Of a stretch of 64,000 nucleotides of DNA, positions 16,894-26,334 are shown one piece after another. Position 1 is the first letter of the stretch. The number at the start of each line of letters is the position of its first letter. The stretch lies in assembly GCA_016286995.1 (NCBI GenBank), contig JAEEVA010000012.1, positions 6,372 through 70,371 of the forward strand, written 5' to 3'. The stretch is from Prevotella sp. GTDB lineage: Bacteria; Bacteroidota; Bacteroidia; Bacteroidales; Bacteroidaceae. The notes below the pieces were generated by a model. That model worked only from the letters and a program-made list of their open reading frames with translations. It did not search any database and was not told the DNA's origin. The translations under genes and the position numbers were made by a program.

Positions 16894-17078
16894 CTCCACT
16901 TTACTGACCTTACAAAGCTGAATTATGCTGCCTTTGCAAAGATTAACAAAAAATCTTTGTAAAGGTGACGTGTTTTTTGTACCTTTGCCTTCGTGACTGA
17001 AAATCCGTCATAGACATGACATAAGAAGTGTATTGAATAGGCTCACACTTTTTTGTTGTCTTCAATAATTATTAAGCA

Positions 17079-17891
17079 ATGATTACAAACCTAAAAATGA
17101 TTGAATTGTTGAAAGAAGTCAATTGTATTGATATTAAAAATAATCAGTATTTAATTGCATGTTATAATGCCATGAAATATATTGGTGAGAACTACAAATC
17201 AGTTATTACTAAGACAATAGAAAAAAGAAATGATGAAATTGCTATAGAGATTTATGAACGCAATTATATAATCTATTTAACTTATGTAATAGGTCTTATA
17301 CAAGGTAAATGTTCTAATGTGTTAGAAAAAGAAGACTTCATAAATGGAGAGATTTATAAGGAAATTGAAATATTGCCAGATGAAAGTGCGAAAAAAGCTT
17401 ATCATCAGTTTCTGGAAATTAAGAACAAAAAGGAGATAAAGAAAAAGGATAATTGTTCAGATGAAACGGCTGTGATTTCGATGAATGAACATATTGGCCA
17501 ATTGATTCCTGATTTTCTTATACATATATCACACAAAAAAGATAATGACTATCGTGGGCAGAAGTTTATAATTGAAGCTAAAACAACATCAAAATTACAA
17601 GAAATACCATTTTGTTGGGATTTGCTCAAACTAAATATATATGTTAATAGTTTGAATTTTGATAATGCTGCATATATTATACTAAACTCGTCAGTTGAAA
17701 AAATCAATACATTACTTGCTTACTATATATTGAATATAGACTATTATGAAGAAGCCCTTGATAAAATATGGTTTTTTGTGCAGAATTGGGATTCGAAAAA
17801 TGAATCATTATTAAGCCCTAAAATTTTCAAATTAGATAAAGAGAATATTCTGATATTTAGGGATCGTGTGTCACATCAAGCTCACAAATAA
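17079..17891 (+). CDS. Hypothetical PD-(D/E)xK nuclease-like protein
   Basis: 'IPDFLIH...FIIEAK...WDLLKL'; very AT-rich. A TACCTTTG promoter lies at 16980-16987. Confidence 0.5.
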   Translation: MITNLKMIELLKEVNCIDIKNNQYLIACYNAMKYIGENYKSVITKTIEKRNDEIAIEIYERNYIIYLTYVIGLIQGKCSNVLEKEDFINGEIYKEIEILPDESAKKAYHQFLEIKNKKEIKKKDNCSDETAVISMNEHIGQLIPDFLIHISHKKDNDYRGQKFIIEAKTTSKLQEIPFCWDLLKLNIYVNSLNFDNAAYIILNSSVEKINTLLAYYILNIDYYEEALDKIWFFVQNWDSKNESLLSPKIFKLDKENILIFRDRVSHQAHK

Positions 17892-17931
17892 TTTGTGATG
17901 TACGAAATCTTGAAATAAATAAGGAACGTTT

Positions 17932-18639
17932 ATGAAAATATTTGAACCTAATATTAATACGTCGAAGAAAAGAGGTGCGATAGATATATACGATCACGAT
18001 ATTAGCGCGCTTACTGATTTCCATGATGAGTACGATTTGCTTCATGATTTATTCGAATCCATTATTTGTGTAGAAGGAAAATATCTTTTGTACACAGATA
18101 AAGCAACAGGAAAAGAACAGAAGCATTTGGAAAGAGTATTTGCTTATGAATTATATAGGCAGTGGGCAAATCGGATTCAAATAAAGTGGGGTGACAAATT
18201 GGTGATAAATGGAGAAATAGGAAAGGAACCCCAAACGTTTGATCATTATAAATCTAAGGTACATAAGTTCCCAGATTTGGTTTTGCATAGTAGTCAAGGG
18301 GATTGTGATTTCCAAGGTATTGTTTGTGAAATAAAAACCTCACATGTTACACCGTCAAGTTTTAAAGAAGATATAGACAAATTGAATTGCTTTGTCTGTT
18401 GTGAAAATGAAAAATATCGATTTATGTTTGGTGTTTTTATTCTTATAGGAGATGATATGAGTAAAATACTAGACATAATGGATGGGATGGAGGGTGACGT
18501 TTTCAAAGCTACTCCAAATGAGTATATAGATAGAATCATTTGTGTTACTTATAATCAAAATCATCTTAAAGCGGTTCGTTTTGATTGGTTAATCAAAAAA
18601 GAAGATAGAGAAGAATTACGTAAACAGTTAAATACATAA
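17932..18639 (+). CDS. Hypothetical PD-(D/E)xK nuclease-like protein
   Basis: 'ERVFAYELY...FPDLVLH...IVCEIK...DIDKL'. Confidence 0.55.
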   Translation: MKIFEPNINTSKKRGAIDIYDHDISALTDFHDEYDLLHDLFESIICVEGKYLLYTDKATGKEQKHLERVFAYELYRQWANRIQIKWGDKLVINGEIGKEPQTFDHYKSKVHKFPDLVLHSSQGDCDFQGIVCEIKTSHVTPSSFKEDIDKLNCFVCCENEKYRFMFGVFILIGDDMSKILDIMDGMEGDVFKATPNEYIDRIICVTYNQNHLKAVRFDWLIKKEDREELRKQLNT

Positions 18640-18643
18640 GGTT

Positions 18644-19153
18644 ATGTTTTGTACTAAGTGTGGATATCAGATAAAGGATGGATATAAGTTCTGTCCGAAG
18701 TGTGGGACTCCTGCGTATGTTGCACGGGAGGAGTCAAAGGTTGAAGTGAAAGCAGAAGTTGATGAGGTTACTAAGGAGGAAAATGGATCAGTAGATTCAG
18801 AACCTGTAGTAAAGACATATACAACAAAGAAGACAGCAAAGGCGAATACTGCATCCGAATCCAAGAAGAAAAAAGCAGGTTCTACACCTAATAAAAATTA
18901 TCCTCCAAATCCTTTGATAGCTGAAGAACTTGATATTGAAGGTGTCATGAAGAAGGCTGAGCAGGGCGATCGAGAAGCCATGCTTAGACAAGCCTTCAGA
19001 TATGAAATGGGCATTGGTGTTGAGAAAGATATAAAGAAAGCTGAAGATCTGTATAATAAGGCGGGAGGAAAGGGATGTATAATTACTTCCTCAGCGTCAA
19101 TGTACGTTTTTGGTGTTGAGTTAAAAGAAAATTTGAATAAGGCTTCAAAATAA
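18644..19153 (+). CDS. Zinc-ribbon + SEL1-like repeat protein
   Basis: CTKC...CPKC and 'AEQGDREAM...YEMGIGVEKDIKKAEDLYNKA'. Confidence 0.75.
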   Translation: MFCTKCGYQIKDGYKFCPKCGTPAYVAREESKVEVKAEVDEVTKEENGSVDSEPVVKTYTTKKTAKANTASESKKKKAGSTPNKNYPPNPLIAEELDIEGVMKKAEQGDREAMLRQAFRYEMGIGVEKDIKKAEDLYNKAGGKGCIITSSASMYVFGVELKENLNKASK

Positions 19154-19158
19154 GGGTT

Positions 19159-22100
19159 ATGGAAGTATTATCATATGTAAAGGATCTGTTGTTGGATTAT
19201 GCCAGCAAAAAAGCAGAATTGAAAAGTCATGGTGAATCAAAAAATAAGTATGAAGTTTTAGATAAGGAATTTGTATCGAATATGATGGTATTGCGAGACA
19301 GATTTCCTGAATATCTGTTTGTCAACTATGACAAGAACATTACTGAAGAAGAGGCCAAAGAGGTGTTCAAAAAGATAAAAGCAAATGTTTCAAATCGATA
19401 TTTCATTCCTTATTTTCCAAAGCCTCAGTTTATGCCTGTTAGTATTGATGGAACAAAGATGGAGATTCCTGGCATAATAGCAAACAGTATGGAAGACAAA
19501 GGGACTCTCTCTATCTATTATACAAGTAAGGATGAAAAACGCAACTGTATAAACCAGTTTCTTATCCATTTATTGGTGTCGATGCCAATTAAGAAAATTA
19601 CTTTGACTTTTGTTGATTTAAAGGGAGATTATGATTCAGAGTTGTTGTTACGACATCTACCTCCCTCAATTTATCATTGCAAACCAATTACCACCGAGCA
19701 GGAACTGGAAATCATGCTTGATGGATTACAAAAGAGAAAAAGGGAAGTAATAACCAGATATGGTGACATTATTAAGTATAGCTACCAAAATAAATCTATC
19801 CCAGAACCTTATGAAGTAATTGTTGTTTATGATGACATGGAGATCTATGAAACTAAGGTAGTTAAAAAAATAAGTGAAATCATTAAGGATTCTTCAAGAA
19901 TTGGTGTTTATTTTGTTTTCTCCCGTTTTAACTGTTCGAATAGTTTCTCTACTTCTACAGAGATAGATCCTCATAACAATTTGTTTTTTGATGAGAATAG
20001 AAAGGTCTTGTCTATTAATTCAATTGATGCCAATAAATACAAATATATAGATTTCGGATACACAGGTTTGTTTTTTGAGAGAAATGAAATTCCCGGCATA
20101 TGTATCAAAGATGGTTTTGGCGAATATCAGGTATATGAAGTTAGCGATAATTCAGCACCCAGTCTTTTGACTACTTGCCAAACGGAAGGATTGGCTTATA
20201 GATATATTGATCAATATTGTAAGTTATATAATTATCCAACTTGCGTGAAATATGCACCACCAATAGAGTTCTTCCATGCAAATGCGGGTTTCTTTGCTAC
20301 TAAGTGTGCATTAGAAGTGCATATACAAAACGATGGAAAGTATCCGTCTTTTGAAGAAGATTTATCTTTCTATTTTTCACAGCTTGGATTTGATATGAAA
20401 TTACAATCAAGGTTTTTAAGTCTTTTAAATGGTACTTTAACATCAAATAATTCAAAAGAAAAATTGTTTTATGGCGGATTTGAAAAAGGGTTTAGTAATA
20501 GTGAGCCCCAATTTCCTATAACATTATTCCTAAAATATTGGCCTACATTCCCTTCATACGATGAATCGAAAATGTTTGAAAAGAAACTATTATCGCAAAT
20601 AGATAAGAAAGCAATAGAAAAATGGGGGAAATATTATAAATATAATCATATTCACTTCAAAGAAGATGATTATAAATGGGACTATAGATTCAGTGATAGA
20701 CACTTGATAGTACAAAAGAATAAGCATATCGTTATTCCAATAGAACATTTTGAAGTATCCAAGAATGATGGAATCATAAATTACACCCCTATCACAAGCA
20801 ATGAGACGCTACTAAAGGCGTGCTTTGATTACATTAGAACTGAAGCAGAGGCTAAAGAAGAAATGCAAGTACAAACTCTGGACTTTGGTTCTGCAGCAGA
20901 AAGTAATTATGAGACGGACCTGTCAATGATTTCAATTCCTGTAGGTAAGGCAGAATCTAAGGATGCTGATTTCCGCATGGACTTGGTGAGTCATGTTCAT
21001 TCGTTCATCATTGGTCAGTCTGGTTCTGGTAAGTCTGTGTTCCTACATAATATAATAGGTGGTGCGATGCTGAAGTATGCGCCAGAGGATTTGCAACTCT
21101 ATCTTCTTGACTTTAAGCTGGGTGGTGTTGAGTTTAATCGGTACAAAGGGGCAAAACATGTAAAGGCTCTGTTGGTAGATAACTCTGACCCACAAGTGAC
21201 ATTGGAGATTCTGCGAGAATTACTAAGGAGTATGACTGAACGTGGGAAGACTCTACAAAGGGCTGGGTGCACCAAAACTGACGAATACAACAAGCTTCAT
21301 CAGCAGGACAGAATGCCTCATGTGCTGGTAGTGGCTGACGAATGTCACGAGATGTTCAAGGCTGATGATTCTATTCCCCGACAGGTGAGAAATGAGATTT
21401 CTGATATTGTTATTAAGATAGCCAAAGAAGGCCGTAATCAGGGCGTTCATCTGGTATTCGCTACGCAGACATTGTCTGGTACGGAAATCTCGAGTGAGAT
21501 CATTAACAACGTGGGTGACTTCTATCTGTTGAAGTGTGCTCAGACGGATTCAGAGCGACTGGTACCCAACAGTTCTGCTATCACTTCAGAATTGTCAACG
21601 GGTCAGATTTACTATCACCATGTGGATGAACAGGTGAAGTTCCAGGCTTACTATACGGATAAGGAAGCTGCGGAGAAACTGATGGCCGCCATTGTGGAGA
21701 AAGCCAAAGACCATAAGAGTAATGGCGAGTTCTACTTTAATGGTGCTCAGATGTTCTATCTGGATGATAGTGTGAAAGAGCAGATAGAGACAGTTAAGGG
21801 TAAGTCGCCAGTAGCATTTATGGGTAAGGCCATTGACATCAGCCAGAAGGATTTGTTTATCAAGTTGAATGAAGACTTCAGTGAGAATGTGCTGTTGTTG
21901 GGACTGAACGATCAGGAGCAGGTGACTCGTACTACGATGAATCTGTTTGTATCGTTGATGATGTCTGCCAAACTGAAACATAAGGATATTGCCTTTAAGG
22001 TGATAGACTGCCTGAACAATGAAGAGGGTGAAGTGCATGAATTGATCTTCGATTTAGAGAACGAAGGCTATTGTGAAATTATTGAGCGCAGGCAGCGCAG

Positions 22101-22668
22101 TAGGTTCTTCAAGGAATTGGCTCAGAGTGTTCTGGATGGAACAGCTGAAGAAACTATCTTGCTGATATTGGGCCAAGACAGATTCAGAGAGTTGAAGAAT
22201 AATTTGCCGTTAGAGGATGGGGATACGGATTTAACATTATTAAATGATGATAAGATAGCAAATATTTCGGCTTTCTTGGATGGTGATAGTGAAGATTCTT
22301 ATTCAACGAATAAAATGGAATCAAATATTAGGTCCTATCGTGAGGCTCTGAATATAATACTTGATAAGGGACCTGATTATGGCGTGCATACTTTGCTGCA
22401 AATTGAAAAGCCAACGAATCTGCTCTTTGGTGATCTTACACCAAAAGAATTGTACCAGAAGTTCAAGCATCTTGTTATGTTAAGGAGTGACGAAAAGAGT
22501 AACTATAGCCTTGGTTTGAACGATGACATTCGTTTGGAGAAACTGAGCAGTGATTGGGAACGACTCCGTGCATATTACTATGCAGAGGAGAGTGACAGTT
22601 ATACGCTGTTCACGCCCTATATGCCCTCGAAATCGAAAGAAATTATTAACTTATTAAAAAAAATATAG
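19159..22668 (+). CDS. FtsK/SpoIIIE-domain ATPase, EssC/EccC-like, with no transmembrane segment
   Basis: Walker A GQSGSGKS, 'YLLDFKLGGVEF', Walker B 'VLVVADECH', 'EGRNQGVHLVFATQ'. Degenerate ATPase-like repeats lie on both sides. Confidence 0.88.
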   Translation: MEVLSYVKDLLLDYASKKAELKSHGESKNKYEVLDKEFVSNMMVLRDRFPEYLFVNYDKNITEEEAKEVFKKIKANVSNRYFIPYFPKPQFMPVSIDGTKMEIPGIIANSMEDKGTLSIYYTSKDEKRNCINQFLIHLLVSMPIKKITLTFVDLKGDYDSELLLRHLPPSIYHCKPITTEQELEIMLDGLQKRKREVITRYGDIIKYSYQNKSIPEPYEVIVVYDDMEIYETKVVKKISEIIKDSSRIGVYFVFSRFNCSNSFSTSTEIDPHNNLFFDENRKVLSINSIDANKYKYIDFGYTGLFFERNEIPGICIKDGFGEYQVYEVSDNSAPSLLTTCQTEGLAYRYIDQYCKLYNYPTCVKYAPPIEFFHANAGFFATKCALEVHIQNDGKYPSFEEDLSFYFSQLGFDMKLQSRFLSLLNGTLTSNNSKEKLFYGGFEKGFSNSEPQFPITLFLKYWPTFPSYDESKMFEKKLLSQIDKKAIEKWGKYYKYNHIHFKEDDYKWDYRFSDRHLIVQKNKHIVIPIEHFEVSKNDGIINYTPITSNETLLKACFDYIRTEAEAKEEMQVQTLDFGSAAESNYETDLSMISIPVGKAESKDADFRMDLVSHVHSFIIGQSGSGKSVFLHNIIGGAMLKYAPEDLQLYLLDFKLGGVEFNRYKGAKHVKALLVDNSDPQVTLEILRELLRSMTERGKTLQRAGCTKTDEYNKLHQQDRMPHVLVVADECHEMFKADDSIPRQVRNEISDIVIKIAKEGRNQGVHLVFATQTLSGTEISSEIINNVGDFYLLKCAQTDSERLVPNSSAITSELSTGQIYYHHVDEQVKFQAYYTDKEAAEKLMAAIVEKAKDHKSNGEFYFNGAQMFYLDDSVKEQIETVKGKSPVAFMGKAIDISQKDLFIKLNEDFSENVLLLGLNDQEQVTRTTMNLFVSLMMSAKLKHKDIAFKVIDCLNNEEGEVHELIFDLENEGYCEIIERRQRSRFFKELAQSVLDGTAEETILLILGQDRFRELKNNLPLEDGDTDLTLLNDDKIANISAFLDGDSEDSYSTNKMESNIRSYREALNIILDKGPDYGVHTLLQIEKPTNLLFGDLTPKELYQKFKHLVMLRSDEKSNYSLGLNDDIRLEKLSSDWERLRAYYYAEESDSYTLFTPYMPSKSKEIINLLKKI

Positions 22669-22670
22669 AT

Positions 22671-22952
22671 ATGGCACAAGAAGTAGGTGTAAGAAGTGTA
22701 CAGGACTTAAAACAGTTTGGTAGTGATTTAAAGAGATTGAGTGAGCAACTCTCAGCAGCATTTCATGCAGCAGAGAAGAAGATGAACCGCGTGTGTGAAG
22801 GTTGGAATGACGTATCGAATCAAAAATTCATGAATGCATTCCAAAAGGACGCTAAGCAAATAGACGAGATTGCAAACCGTATAGTGGAGTATGCCAAGTT
22901 TATTGGTAAGAGTGCAGAAATCTTGGAGATGTATCGCAGTAATAGAATCTGA
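22671..22952 (+). CDS. WXG100-like small helical protein
   Basis: 93 aa helix-turn-helix with a central W (EGWND), directly after the FtsK gene. Confidence 0.75.
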   Translation: MAQEVGVRSVQDLKQFGSDLKRLSEQLSAAFHAAEKKMNRVCEGWNDVSNQKFMNAFQKDAKQIDEIANRIVEYAKFIGKSAEILEMYRSNRI

Positions 22953-22958
22953 TAGATT

Positions 22959-23435
22959 ATGGCAGAAGATGCAAAGGTCTCACAAGTCAGTGAGTTGACA
23001 GCATACGCTGGGAAGATGCAGGGCTTCATGGAATCTGTGTCTGGGAACTGTACGGCTCTGAACAACTTGATGGTTCAGAAGTTGGATGGTCTACGTAAGA
23101 AGTTGAAAAAGGCAGAAGAGATGGAGGCTGAGGCTGTGGCAGAGTATAATGAATTGATAAAAGCTATGGCCTATACAGCTAATGATGATGTCGAAGGCAG
23201 AAGGGCATTGCTGGCAAAGAAATCGTATCTGGAGAATAGAAAAAATAAGGCCAAGAAGATGCGAGAGTATGTTTCATTGCAAGTGAAAGTGGCCCAAGGT
23301 GCTACCAATGCTATCATTGATGCTACAAAGTCTTTTCAGAATAAAGTGAAAGGTAATGTTGATAAGGGGCGACAACTTCTCAAGAAGTCTGTAGCTCAGT
23401 TGGATCAGTATAACGAAACGAAAAAGATAATATGA
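22959..23435 (+). CDS. Coiled-coil protein, possible WXG100/LXG-like partner
   Basis: 158 aa, all-helical, K/A/E-rich, no signal peptide. Confidence 0.55.
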   Translation: MAEDAKVSQVSELTAYAGKMQGFMESVSGNCTALNNLMVQKLDGLRKKLKKAEEMEAEAVAEYNELIKAMAYTANDDVEGRRALLAKKSYLENRKNKAKKMREYVSLQVKVAQGATNAIIDATKSFQNKVKGNVDKGRQLLKKSVAQLDQYNETKKII

Positions 23436-23674
23436 ATCCCATAGGAATATTGAATAATGACATGTCGACTTTTATGATGGCAACACAAAAGGTCTTCGAG
23501 GCTTGGAATGATAGGGTGGCCGAAGGTTTTAAGAATCATTGCGTGGATCAGATTCAACGAGACTGGAACGCCTATTTGCAGGAGATGAATATTCGAATGA
23601 ATATATTCATGAAGGCTGAGAAGACGATAGATGATGAGATTGCAAAGTATGAACGAGAATATAACAGGAGTTAG
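23432..23674 (+). CDS. Second WXG100-like small helical protein
   Basis: 80 aa with 'EAWND'; ATGA overlap with the upstream gene. Confidence 0.55.
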   Translation: MNPIGILNNDMSTFMMATQKVFEAWNDRVAEGFKNHCVDQIQRDWNAYLQEMNIRMNIFMKAEKTIDDEIAKYEREYNRS

Positions 23675-23680
23675 TGCTAT

Positions 23681-24952
23681 ATGAAAGAGTGTCCAAAGTG
23701 TAAAACTCAACTTGAAGATGACGAGTTGTTTTGTCACGAGTGTGGTACAAAACAAGAGGTTGAAGAGGTCGTTCAGACTGAAGAACTTGTAGCTACAGAA
23801 GAAAAGTATTGTGTCCATTGCGGAAAAGCCATGGAGGCAGATAGTGCATTCTGTCCTTTCTGTGGAAAACCGCAAGACGTAGAGGAAGTAAAGAATGAAG
23901 AGCCTCAGAAGGAGGTTGAAAAAGAAGAGCCTAATCAAGAACCTGTGGAACCAGAACATGTTCAAACAGACGATCAAGGTACCGTTCCGCCGCCTCAGCC
24001 TGAGTCATCGGAGCAATCGGAACAGCCCAAACAGTCAGAGACTGAAGAGCGTCCAACAGACGAATGGGAAGAGGAAAAAAAGCCAAAGACTTGGCTTTGG
24101 ATACTGTTGGTATTGTTGATTGCAGGTGCTGCCGGGTGGTATTTCTTTATTAAGGATTCTGGAAATACCATGTATGAGTCACAGGTGGATACAGATAGTA
24201 TAGAAGAAATAGTGGATTCCATATATGATGAGGAAGCTTATGATGCATTTTCTGTTGAAGGTATACAGGCTAGGCTTAACGATATCTTATCAAAGGCATT
24301 GATGATGCGTGAAGATGACGCCGTCAGAACATATTTCTCAGAAGAGTTCAGAGGCCTTTATGCAAGAGTGGCCGAAAAAGACAGTCATCTTGATGGCCCA
24401 GGATTCTGGAATGGAAACATCTGGGACGGAGGACAGGATGGTGATCCTGGTAAATATACTATTATCAGGGTTGGCTCTCCAAATGATAATAAGGCTGATG
24501 CAGGTGTTAAGTTTTCATATGATATGGTAGACTATCATTCTGATAATCTGATAACGATTGAATTAGTTTTTGAAAATGGCGATTGGTATATCGATGATGT
24601 AGATGCAAATAAACAAGGAATGATAACTTATCTCAAAGATGAAGACTCTTCATCTGATACAGATGAAGTCAACAATTCTCAGGATTCAGAAAAGAGTCAG
24701 CTAAGAGGGAATGAACTATCGATTCGTAAGTTGACAGAAAAAGATATCGAAGGGTTGTCATCTGGAGAGTTGGAAATTCTGAGGAATGTCGTTTATGCCC
24801 GTTATGGTTATTTGTTCCAAAGAGAGGATCTTCGAAGATTCTTCTTGCAATACAGTTGGTATCAACCAACAAATAAGGATGCCAATGAAATCTATGACAA
24901 CTTTACAGAAATTGAGCGATATAATATTGATTTTATAAAGAGACATGAATGA
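23681..24952 (+). CDS. Double zinc-ribbon / transmembrane / YARHG-domain protein
   Basis: Four CxxC motifs, an acidic linker, TM 'WLWILLVLLIAGAAGWYFF', and 'LRNVVYARYGYLF...WYQP'. Confidence 0.8.
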   Translation: MKECPKCKTQLEDDELFCHECGTKQEVEEVVQTEELVATEEKYCVHCGKAMEADSAFCPFCGKPQDVEEVKNEEPQKEVEKEEPNQEPVEPEHVQTDDQGTVPPPQPESSEQSEQPKQSETEERPTDEWEEEKKPKTWLWILLVLLIAGAAGWYFFIKDSGNTMYESQVDTDSIEEIVDSIYDEEAYDAFSVEGIQARLNDILSKALMMREDDAVRTYFSEEFRGLYARVAEKDSHLDGPGFWNGNIWDGGQDGDPGKYTIIRVGSPNDNKADAGVKFSYDMVDYHSDNLITIELVFENGDWYIDDVDANKQGMITYLKDEDSSSDTDEVNNSQDSEKSQLRGNELSIRKLTEKDIEGLSSGELEILRNVVYARYGYLFQREDLRRFFLQYSWYQPTNKDANEIYDNFTEIERYNIDFIKRHE

Positions 24953-25490
24953 AGAAATCGCCACTTGGACAGATGAGTTCGGGGGTGTTTATACAGCCGA
25001 TAAAAAACGGTTGCTGATGGTGCCGGATGTGAAACGGTATCGGATAGTGGAGGGATGTGAGGCGGTGGATGAGTACGCCTTCGACGGCTGTGATAAATTG
25101 GAGGTGCTTTATGTGCCTTATACCTTTAGTGAAGAAGAGGTCGACAGGGTGCTGTATATCATGCCGGAAACGGTGGGGAATGTCTGTACTTGGGACAGGC
25201 CTTACGTGGATGAGGTGTACGACGTTAACGAGTACTGGCACGAAGAGAATGACACCATAATGGATGCATACGGAGTGGTGTATGCTAATGGTGGACGAAG
25301 GCTGCTCATGATGACAAGGCCTGAACTGATAGGTAAAGAGTATATGGTGCCAGATGGGGTGTTGACCATCTGCGATGGAGCATTTGAGGTCTGTAAGGAT
25401 TATTTGGTATTGTCTGCACCAAGGAGCATCAAGGTGATTGGTGACTATCTATTTGGTGAGGACGGAGGGAAAATTGTAATACGCGATTGA
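24945..25490 (+). CDS. BspA/LRR_5-like repeat protein
   Basis: Two 'DEFGGVYTADKKRLL' / 'DAYGVVYANGGRRLL' units and 'VPDGVLTICDGAF'. Confidence 0.6.
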   Translation: MNEEIATWTDEFGGVYTADKKRLLMVPDVKRYRIVEGCEAVDEYAFDGCDKLEVLYVPYTFSEEEVDRVLYIMPETVGNVCTWDRPYVDEVYDVNEYWHEENDTIMDAYGVVYANGGRRLLMMTRPELIGKEYMVPDGVLTICDGAFEVCKDYLVLSAPRSIKVIGDYLFGEDGGKIVIRD

Positions 25491-25491
25491 T

Positions 25492-25788
25492 ATGGAAGGG
25501 AATACTTTTAGGTTTAGGATTTCGTTAGGATATGCAGGGAATATCGATTTGTGGATTGAGATTCCCATGGAGCTACATGAGCGAATTAGCGATAGCGCTG
25601 GAAAGAGCAAGATGGAACGATTTGAATTCGGATTCAAATTCGCAGATATCATCAAAGAGAAGTTTCCTGAATTGGATGCATTGATTCATCAGGAGATTGA
25701 ACACTGGAAGGAAGAACATCGTGATGTGGATATTCCAGATAACGTACTACACTTGTATGGTCTTACGTCGTCTTGGTTTGAAGAATAA
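25492..25788 (+). CDS. Hypothetical protein
   Basis: 98-aa ORF tightly packed in the operon. Confidence 0.55.
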   Translation: MEGNTFRFRISLGYAGNIDLWIEIPMELHERISDSAGKSKMERFEFGFKFADIIKEKFPELDALIHQEIEHWKEEHRDVDIPDNVLHLYGLTSSWFEE

Positions 25789-25801
25789 TACGCAAACAAT
25801 T

Positions 25802-26290
25802 ATGAACGAGATTAAAATAGTAGTAGGGGACATCACTAAATTGAAGGTGGATGCTATAGTGAATGCTGCCAATAAGACGCTGTTGGGCGGTGGTGGCGTA
25901 GATGGTGCTATTCATCATGCGGCTGGTCCGGGATTGTTGAAGGAGTGCATGACACTTGGAGGTTGTGAGACTGGCCAGAGCAAGATGACGGATGCCTATA
26001 AGCTGCCTTGCAAAAAGGTGATTCATACGGTTGGGCCGATATGGTATGGGGGTAACAACAATGAAAGGGAACTGCTGGCTTCGTGCTATGATACTGCCAT
26101 GAAACTGGCTGAGGAGAACGACTTAAAGAGCATAGCCTTCTCATGTATCAGTACTGGTGTTTATGGCTTCCCGAAGGCTGAGGCTGCCGTCATTGCCAAA
26201 CGAGTATTAGCAGAGCATATTCAGTCTGGCTATCAAGGAGAAGTATTCGTATGCTGCTTCACGGAGCAAGACGCGAAATACTATCAATGA
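25802..26290 (+). CDS. Macrodomain O-acetyl-ADP-ribose deacetylase / ADP-ribosylhydrolase (YmdB-like)
   Basis: 'GDIT', 'NAANKTLLGGGGVDGAIH', 'HTVGP', 'ISTGVYGFP'. Start set at MNEIK. Confidence 0.92.
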   Translation: MNEIKIVVGDITKLKVDAIVNAANKTLLGGGGVDGAIHHAAGPGLLKECMTLGGCETGQSKMTDAYKLPCKKVIHTVGPIWYGGNNNERELLASCYDTAMKLAEENDLKSIAFSCISTGVYGFPKAEAAVIAKRVLAEHIQSGYQGEVFVCCFTEQDAKYYQ

Positions 26291-26334
26291 TTTCCCCCCC
26301 CCCCAGTCATTTTCACAGGTACAGTAAATAAATA

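Follow-up and report, generated by a model that had tools for sequence, protein, structure and literature searches.

A membrane-less, type VII secretion-like ATPase module with WXG100 proteins in Prevotella: possible intracellular conflict machine or minimal exporter

How may an EssC-like ATPase that carries no membrane helix act on WXG100 proteins in a cell with two membranes: by pushing them outwards, or by working on them inside? The question is raised by a 64,000-nucleotide stretch of Prevotella sp. DNA (GenBank assembly GCA_016286995.1, contig JAEEVA010000012.1, positions 6,372 to 70,371), termed the window below, in which the gene of a three-domain FtsK/EssC-like ATPase is followed by three genes for small helical proteins, designated A, B and C. 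This module lies outside the canonical type VII secretion systems (T7SS), T7SSa and T7SSb. It is already known in kind, and the window holds a Bacteroidales variant of it. Our tentative preference is for an intracellular role: this membrane-less, solo-WXG relative of the T7SS would be a conflict (anti-invader) machine that acts when triggered, and not an export channel.

The ATPase and its three small partners

The module is composed of the following features:

18644..19153, + strand: zinc-ribbon and Sel1-repeat protein, 169 residues, part of the module, fused onto the ATPase N-terminus in close relatives
19159..22668, + strand: three-domain FtsK/EssC-like ATPase, 1169 residues, no predicted membrane helix
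19411..19929, + strand: degenerate FtsK-fold domain 1 of the ATPase (residues ~85-257), without Walker A
19930..20793, + strand: variable insert between domains 1 and 2 (residues ~258-545), of which residues 366-490 are folded in the model
20914..21708, + strand: middle FtsK domain, with intact Walker A, Walker B and GR motif
21013-21036, + strand: Walker A of the ATPase, GQSGSGKS
21730..22623, + strand: degenerate domain 3, without Walker A
22671..22952, + strand: protein A, 93 residues, WXG100/EsxA-like hairpin with a W-x-D turn
22959..23435, + strand: protein B, 158 residues, long two-helix hairpin, C-terminal toxin domain absent
23432..23674, + strand: protein C, 80 residues, second WXG-like protein, with a W-x-D turn

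An earlier, sequence-only reading of the window had described the 1169-residue ATPase followed by three small helical open reading frames (ORFs), and its coordinates, gaps and overlap are correct: the gene of the ATPase is separated from that of A by 2 nucleotides and A from B by 6, and B and C overlap by 4. It placed the start of the module at 19159. The module begins further upstream, however, with the zinc-ribbon/Sel1 ORF, which is counted as one of its parts because its counterpart is fused to the ATPase in close relatives (loci L019-L022 and homologs P0064, P0071, P0074 and P0185; the ATPase of L023 has the same length as that of L022). Sel1 arrays are fused to the ATPase in P0100, P0122, P0129 and P0137.

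Only residues 582-773 of the ATPase match the Pfam family FtsK_SpoIIIE (E 2e-26), and the protein displays the motifs GQSGSGKS (residues 619-626), VADE (725-728) and GRNQGVH (758-764). Its AlphaFold model, based on a 61-sequence alignment (mean pLDDT 80.3, pTM 0.54), comprises an N-terminal helical part, the alpha/beta domain 1, a partly disordered insert and two more domains, the three alpha/beta domains lying at about residues 85-257, 590-850 and 858-1155. Exactly one Walker A is found in 86 out of 86 distinct homologs of at least 800 residues, and the Walker motifs are invariant in all 61 aligned homologs. The earlier description of one intact FtsK domain between two degenerate ones is thus borne out by the three folds of the model and the single Walker A, but it overlooked the insert of ~290 residues between domains 1 and 2.

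The best matches of the ATPase among PDB sequences are EccC5, EccC and YukB, which rank above TcpA and FtsK. A Foldseek search with the model places EccC/EssC chains in the top eight positions, with more than 590 aligned columns extending over two domains. The kinship to T7SS proposed earlier therefore holds for the ATPase, as it does for protein A, a WXG100 protein. The scores stay far below the NCBIfam cut-offs (101 against 509 bits for TIGR03924, 73 against 778 for TIGR03928, and 58 against 347 for TIGR03925). EssC and EccC possess four ATPase-fold domains, D0-D3 (Shah 2026, PMC13355648), and not three, as had been assumed. The best scores of the middle domain are with D1-type modules of EssC, domain 1 weakly matches D2-type modules (E 0.0025 to 5fv0) and not D0, and domain 3 has no PDB sequence match at E<=1. 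Consequently, there is no one-to-one mapping onto D0-D3, and an equivalence of the three domains with D0-D1-D2 is not supported. P0146, P0163, P0169, P0173 and others are proteins of 2300-3100 residues with 6-8 tandem FtsK modules, P0146 exceeding the EssC and EccC cut-offs, and P0197 carries an EACC1-type caspase in front.

The absence of a transmembrane helix, already noted from the sequence, is supported by a crude Kyte-Doolittle scan, not a dedicated predictor, in which the maximum 19-residue hydropathy of the ATPase is 1.57, as compared to 2.31 for the membrane helix of the 423-residue protein encoded downstream; the structure model shows no membrane helix either. For comparison, 104 related loci were gathered with the ATPase as sole query, the metagenome scan contributing the best 80 of 310 confirmed matches. 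Clustering at 90% local identity divides these loci into 73 clusters, of which 68 remain once five distant ones are removed. The hydropathy of the ATPase reaches 1.7 in four of these 68 clusters. Among 101 full-length representatives, taken from the 150 best matches of a profile search, nine attain at least 1.8, and a clear helix pair is seen in one, P0160, a partial record from Dysgonamonadaceae with two membrane helices fused in front of the ATPase homolog.

Protein A belongs to the WXG100 family: 49 of 59 homologs match PF06013 at E<=1e-3, although the window's own copy stays below the Pfam cut-off (22 vs 27.3 bits). Its profile retrieves EsxA structures with E-values of 6e-8 to 1e-6, the best being SAG1039 (6e-8), and weakly HP0062 (PDB 3fx7, E 0.018). 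The EGWND and EAWND turns reported earlier are both present, and the W-x-D they contain is invariant in the protein A homologs (59/59) and in protein C. The canonical WxG occurs in none of the 59 protein A homologs, and the C-terminal hydrophobic-xxx-D/E pattern, taken from Poulsen 2014 (PMC3935865), in one. Another C-terminal motif, of LxxY type, is found in 38 of the 59 and in all 29 aligned protein B sequences. The protein C profile matches protein A (probability 89.9%, 70 columns), and EsxA and HP0062 only at E ~0.08, among coiled-coil noise. Five loci (L029, L030, L031, L093 and L117) have a protein C extended by 60-80 C-terminal residues, a possible cargo site.

Protein B is modelled as one long hairpin with helices at residues 2-72 and 78-157 (pLDDT 89), and its first 43 columns match protein A (81%). 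In the 29 aligned sequences it measures 154-181 residues, is a hairpin throughout and has no toxin domain. A fold search with the model retrieved generic long hairpins only, the best Z-score of 11.9 being below what is meaningful for helical bundles, and no T7SS substrate is among the matches listed. A weak search, restricted to proteins of 318-2000 residues, found no longer homolog of protein B. A divergent member, L122 (9426-11195), branches outside the main Bacteroidales clade and encodes two A copies, a C-like protein, and a B-like protein of 272 residues whose tail looks rich in beta structure.

Linkage, spread and the variable front half

Protein A is encoded near the ATPase in all 62 clusters with at least 400 nucleotides of downstream sequence, and within 100 nucleotides of its stop codon in 59 of them; the other six of the 68 clusters offer too little downstream sequence and were left out of this count. 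Since the loci were collected by the ATPase alone, this linkage is not due to chance, and the co-occurrence of WXG100-like proteins with the ATPase, on which the sequence-only reading depended, extends well beyond the window. Among the 52 clusters with at least 1.5 kb downstream, 35 harbor A, B and C, 16 harbor A only, and one harbors A and B with a weak C-like ORF, as judged with profiles that were built from these same loci and are hence tuned to them. Proteins B and C therefore occur jointly. In L118, a C-like gene is found upstream instead.

The A-only loci form a single clade (Shimodaira-Hasegawa-like approximate likelihood ratio test, SH-aLRT, 100) in a quick tree from which five rows without the Walker A pattern were excluded. 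This clade is accompanied by SPFH-GYF proteins, zinc-ribbon membrane proteins and bacterial PH domains. Two of its loci (L076, 3219-7968; L086, 4102-5412) also encode MORN-repeat and Sel1 proteins, which share an N-terminal domain with the conserved 150-residue gene product of the A-only subtype.

The module is present in 6 of 250 genomes of the genus and 10 of 300 of the family (2-3%). In order-wide and phylum-wide samples it was found in 0 of 400 genomes each, with strict thresholds and, in one of the samples, two candidates scored per genome. Homologs are also contained in Dysgonamonadaceae and Paludibacteraceae records, and the closest named relatives are two metagenome-assembled genomes of rumen Prevotella. 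Phage records and viral contigs yielded distant FtsK matches only. Split or truncated ATPases are found in L080, L087 and L029.

Within the window's subclade, the front and back halves of the ATPase differ strongly in conservation. The closest relatives are 88-93% identical to the window in the middle domain and 80-83% in domain 3, against 35-45% in domain 1 and 18-34% in the insert; over the subclade (21 pairs), the median identity is 37% for domain 1 vs 93% for domain 2. Proteins A, B and C are 87-95%, 80-85% and 75-92% identical, respectively, in L001, L002, L019, L021 and L022. The stretch between domains 1 and 2 comprises 59-106 residues in 75 of 86 homologs and 195-478 in the window's subclade, where the insert differs in length and content even among close relatives. 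Two inserts contain domains above the Pfam cut-off, that of L022 one resembling the L7/L12 C-terminal domain and that of L019 a rubredoxin-like finger; the window's insert has neither a Pfam match nor a usable ESM Atlas match.

L019 and L020 overlap and represent one locus with two ATPase copies and a single A-B-C set; in 1.9 kb of their back half the copies share 92% identity, and in their first 600 residues 26-56%. Two ATPase copies are likewise carried by L098 and by L040, those of the latter being 90% alike throughout. In the window, the GC content rises from 32% in the front half of the ATPase gene to 42% in the back half, near position 20900. From the variable front on a conserved back, the tandem variants and this GC step, we infer that front halves are exchanged as cassettes. 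A second, rearranged form is seen in L029 (526-3498), where an FtsK domain with 11 Sel1 repeats is encoded directly 5' of an intact ATPase.

Kinship with type VII secretion and with described modules

T7SSa are built from EccC, Esx and PE/PPE proteins, and T7SSb from EssC, EsxA and LXG-Lap proteins. The module resembles them by its tandem FtsK folds with one essential Walker site, and by the combination of an EsxA-like hairpin with a longer rod that has its own small helical partner (Klein 2024, PMC10801868; Shah 2026, PMC13355648). It differs from them by the lack of FHA domains and by three ATPase folds instead of four. It fails as a member of the canonical T7SS because it has no anchor, no matches to EssB, EsaA, EccB or YukD, and no canonical export motif. 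A WXG100 protein, protein A, does stand beside the ATPase. The latter, however, is not a membrane-anchored EccC/EssC, its model contains three folds and not D0-D3 in EssC order, and the bipartite export motif (WxG plus C-terminal acidic residue), both parts of which are needed in EsxA for streptococcal T7SSb export (Shah 2026, PMC13355648), is missing. The lack of T7SS membrane partners that had been noted around the locus extends to the window's genome (83.7% complete), in which YukC/EssB, EsaA, EccB and YukD have 0 matches each with positive controls, the genome-wide search not including EssA, EccD, EccE and MycP. An outer-membrane component was not seen.

Two descriptions come closest. Zhang 2012 (PMC3482391, Table 1 footnote 6) lists, as a 'mobile T7SS', solo WXG proteins with a YueA-like three-domain ATPase in which only the middle domain is active, and reports this combination from bacteroidetes among other diderm lineages; the passage concerned lacks the Bacteroidales gene order, the B and C partners, the fused zinc-ribbon/Sel1 adaptor and the front-half variability. 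Bell 2024 (PMC11090510) describes an ATPase with an active central domain and no transmembrane helices, together with two WXG100-like proteins and a coiled-coil nuclease, located within type IV restriction operons, and states that a differing mechanism seems likely for the membrane-less ATPase. The window shares with this type the three folds with a Walker site in the middle one only, the absence of a transmembrane helix, and two WXG100-like proteins with a long coiled coil. In the Bell type, however, a D-ExK nuclease is joined to the coiled coil, a DNA-mimic-like gene comes next, and the ATPase itself bears a coiled coil at its N-terminus; vWA, kinase and McrBC genes belong to the operons. 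In the window, protein B is bare and no immunity or DNA-mimic gene accompanies it; the Bacteroidales module also differs in that the ATPase gene comes first and Sel1/zinc-ribbon modules stand in front.

Relatives with the nuclease are found on plasmids of Caballeronia (L123) and Helicobacter (L124), both with a nuclease on the rod and an immunity-like gene beside it. L123 shows the Bell layout, with vWA, CARF, PP2C and kinase genes as neighbours; in L124, the rod bears an HNH nuclease and a SMI1/KNR4 gene is present, neither of which the window has. The profiles match the Caballeronia WXG protein (E 5e-11) and, weakly, its rod (E 5e-4), but not its third small protein. The domain 1 profile matches L123 (E 1e-13) and L124 (E 4e-7), and they fall into one branch at SH-aLRT 89 (unstarred, quick tree). 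HP0062/HP0066 of Helicobacter pylori belong to this kind as well (Uchiyama 2016, PMC4978471), HP0062 being a dimeric hairpin with a WRD turn (PMC3397514; PDB 3fx7). The likeness consists of a W-x-D, WXG100-like dimeric hairpin encoded beside an FtsK-family gene in a diderm host. The available part of Garrett 2024 (PMC11217815) does not mention such diderm systems, nor does that of Kaur 2021 (PMC8195603) mention WXG. The novelty implied by the sequence-only reading is therefore not upheld, as the architecture, its presence in Bacteroidetes and the missing transmembrane helix are in print (Zhang 2012, PMC3482391; Bell 2024, PMC11090510; Uchiyama 2016, PMC4978471). What the clade adds is a toxin-free protein B, a zinc-ribbon/Sel1 gene that can be fused to the ATPase, a hypervariable front on a conserved motor, and tandem variants.

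The island and the possible functions of the module

The module is embedded in a same-strand gene run (17079-26290) with a GC content of 38%, as compared to 50% for the genome. The other genes of the run are:

17079..17891, + strand: second PD-(D/E)xK-type ORF, 270 residues, accessory
17932..18639, + strand: PD-(D/E)xK-type nuclease-like ORF, 235 residues, accessory, also found without a nearby ATPase
23681..24952, + strand: double zinc ribbon - single membrane helix - YARHG protein, 423 residues, candidate membrane partner or sensor
24945-25490, + strand: degenerate BspA-type leucine-rich repeat (LRR) protein, island passenger
25492-25788, + strand: 98-residue protein, island passenger
25803-26290, + strand: macro-domain (ADP-ribose) protein at the island end, passenger

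The low-GC island (17000-26330) is preceded by a gene that we take to encode a YifB/ComM-like ATPase, and ends at a stem-loop ahead of an alanine dehydrogenase-like gene. Unlike the window, none of the nine closest loci has a comM or alanine dehydrogenase neighbour, and an empty comM insertion site could not be demonstrated, four relatives showing another gene order. No flanking repeat stood out around the island, and a promoter and terminator scan of the locus with the sigma-70 consensus was uninformative. One bovine-gut RNA run gave six short low-depth contigs, five of them less than 90% alike, which are no evidence of expression. A macro-domain protein is also encoded 3' of the module in L021; translation of the window's copy more likely starts at the ATG at 25803 than at the TTG at 25697. 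The zinc ribbon-YARHG protein stays 3' of protein C in the closest relatives. A three-gene cassette (a small protein, a 158-residue protein with an HGS motif, and a small protein) recurs beside the module in L002 (6147-7062) and L036; presumably it resembles an ADP-ribosyltransferase toxin-antitoxin unit.

Both upstream ORFs show an invariant E...PD...ExK pattern, and the named Atlas clusters closest to them are those of PD-(D/E)xK nucleases, a similarity (0.75-0.77) that counts as no more than a lead. Of 13 aligned members of the family, 3 match PD-lambda-3 A (best E 5e-8). The upstream nuclease is an island passenger and not a fixed part, since it is mostly absent at ATPase loci and present elsewhere alone, and its candidacy as the effector of the module is weakened for the same reason. 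Seven islands without the ATPase (L162-L168) contain nuclease, LRR, SprT, kinase, Sel1 or other variable genes, which suggests a wider island type in rumen Prevotella.

A cytoplasmic conflict machine, one of the options offered by the sequence-only reading, is also the best guess here, and it rests on context. The missing membrane parts and export motif of canonical T7SS count for an intracellular action. The patchy presence and the low-GC island count for conflict, as does a defence-type context (the PD-(D/E)xK ORFs, the Caballeronia neighbours, and the type IV restriction operons). The front-half variability, the tandem ATPase variants and the GC step are signs of an arms race.

On the observed anatomy, linkage and variability, a series of pairings, a trigger, a ring and an effect may be proposed. 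By analogy with the EsxA and HP0062 dimers and the LXG-Lap bundles, and in view of co-occurrence, a protein A homodimer and a B-C pair would form two rod-shaped helical bundles. The conserved back half of the ATPase (domains 2-3) would bind these conserved bundles, and a variable trigger would be bound by the equally variable front, which consists of the zinc-ribbon/Sel1 adaptor, the dead domain 1 and the insert. A protein of the invader might be this trigger, or else a single-pass membrane protein encoded nearby, for instance the zinc ribbon-YARHG protein. Upon triggering, the middle domain could form a ring and thread the bundles or pry them open, and the opened bundles would release an effect harmful to the infected cell. 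This last step is the weakest, because no effector is conserved. In the relatives with a nuclease on a B-like rod and an immunity-like gene, the effect may be the stripping of an inhibitor; in the window, where B carries no enzyme, it may be a non-covalent cargo or membrane damage by the helical proteins. EsxE and EsxF are said to form pores.

Besides the missing conserved effector, several observations weigh against such a conflict machine. The nuclease-like ORF lies upstream in 8 of 40 clusters with protein B and in none of 16 A-only clusters. Its family is present in 10 of 250 genomes of the genus, nine without an ATPase match and the tenth with both on different contigs. Other pairs of ATPases with similar middle domains have a median domain 1 identity of 70% (309 pairs), so that the strong front-half variability is particular to the window's subclade. 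None of A, B and C is represented by a model in PADLOC, whose ATPase matches (SspH, mad8, HerA) span the generic FtsK domain only. A functional experiment on any member of the module was not found in the literature searched, and both Bell 2024 (PMC11090510) and Zhang 2012 (PMC3482391) favour secretion. Export to rivals would account at least equally well for the pairs of nuclease and immunity-like genes seen in the relatives from Helicobacter and Caballeronia. Finally, a gene with an internal membrane helix adjoins the module in 18 of 34 loci vs 20% of four-gene background windows, an enrichment that also fits a membrane partner for export.

Accordingly, the strongest competitor, somewhat unlikely but serious, is a minimal export device, such as has been proposed for the 'mobile T7SS': the soluble ATPase would dock on a separate membrane protein, or on a channel made of A, B and C together, and push the bundles across the inner membrane. 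The closeness of two ATPase domains to EccC/EssC folds and that of protein A to EsxA both speak for it, as do the nuclease-tipped rods with immunity-like genes and the two fused membrane helices of the partial record P0160. In 24 of 47 clusters, the product of the gene directly upstream has an internal membrane helix, as against 17% for the genes of the window's genome; the clusters are related, and the loci of the membrane-neighbour counts are not independent. However, these neighbours belong to several unrelated families, none of which is common across the loci, and 16 of the 34 loci have none by the same test, which leaves no conserved channel. Export would also have to do without a visible outer-membrane part, with a protein B devoid of cargo domain, and without the canonical motif, for which the private LxxY-type C-terminal motif could nevertheless substitute.

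A membrane-stress or signalling scaffold of the Ter type, in which the ATPase would remodel the bundles within a membrane-bound complex (SPFH, TerB-like, zinc-ribbon and PH proteins) with neither secretion nor suicide, is improbable. Its best argument is the company of the A-only clade, described above, whose zinc-ribbon membrane proteins we take to be TerB-like, Pfam showing the zinc ribbon only. Moreover, the wider family is tied to TerY-P triads (in part from Uchiyama 2016, PMC4978471). The A+B+C type, of which the window is an example, mostly lacks these partners, however, and a housekeeping role agrees less well than conflict with the patchy presence and the hypervariable front halves.

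The module might also be the decaying remnant of a toxin-delivery cassette, functionless now that its toxin is gone, which would explain a protein B without the toxin domain of its relatives and the split or truncated ATPases. This is very unlikely: the reading frames of the window are all intact, the Walker motifs are invariant, and the toxin-less protein B is retained across dozens of divergent loci.

Least credible of all is an FtsK/TcpA-type DNA translocase serving conjugation or island mobility, since, despite matches of the middle domain to TcpA (E 8e-13) and FtsK (E 2e-8), EccC/EssC rank higher by sequence and fold, the single motor domain, membrane anchor and relaxase, type IV secretion or division context of such enzymes are not found, no relaxase or type IV secretion family recurs among the neighbours, and the family forms a clade (SH-aLRT 99, quick tree without TcpA) apart from the genome's chromosomal FtsK. 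Of the two outcomes that the earlier reading had named as refuting its proposal, neither was observed.

The conflict machine can be taken one step further, to an unlikely form: a type VII motor turned into a cytoplasmic immune switch. Sensor cassettes (the Sel1/zinc-ribbon adaptor, the dead FtsK domain, and inserts like the L7/L12-like domain) would be swapped by recombination onto the conserved motor, which upon triggering would make ESAT-6-like bundles the killing agent, with no toxin domain and no secretion. How an anchor-less EssC-like ATPase serves WXG100 proteins in a two-membrane cell was left open in Bell 2024 (PMC11090510). Being small and toxin-free, with two natural forms and natural swaps of the front half, the Bacteroidales version offers well-defined material with which to distinguish export from defence inside the cell. 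If true, the immune switch would be an anti-phage system made from WXG100 proteins alone, and would show what role these proteins have without a channel.

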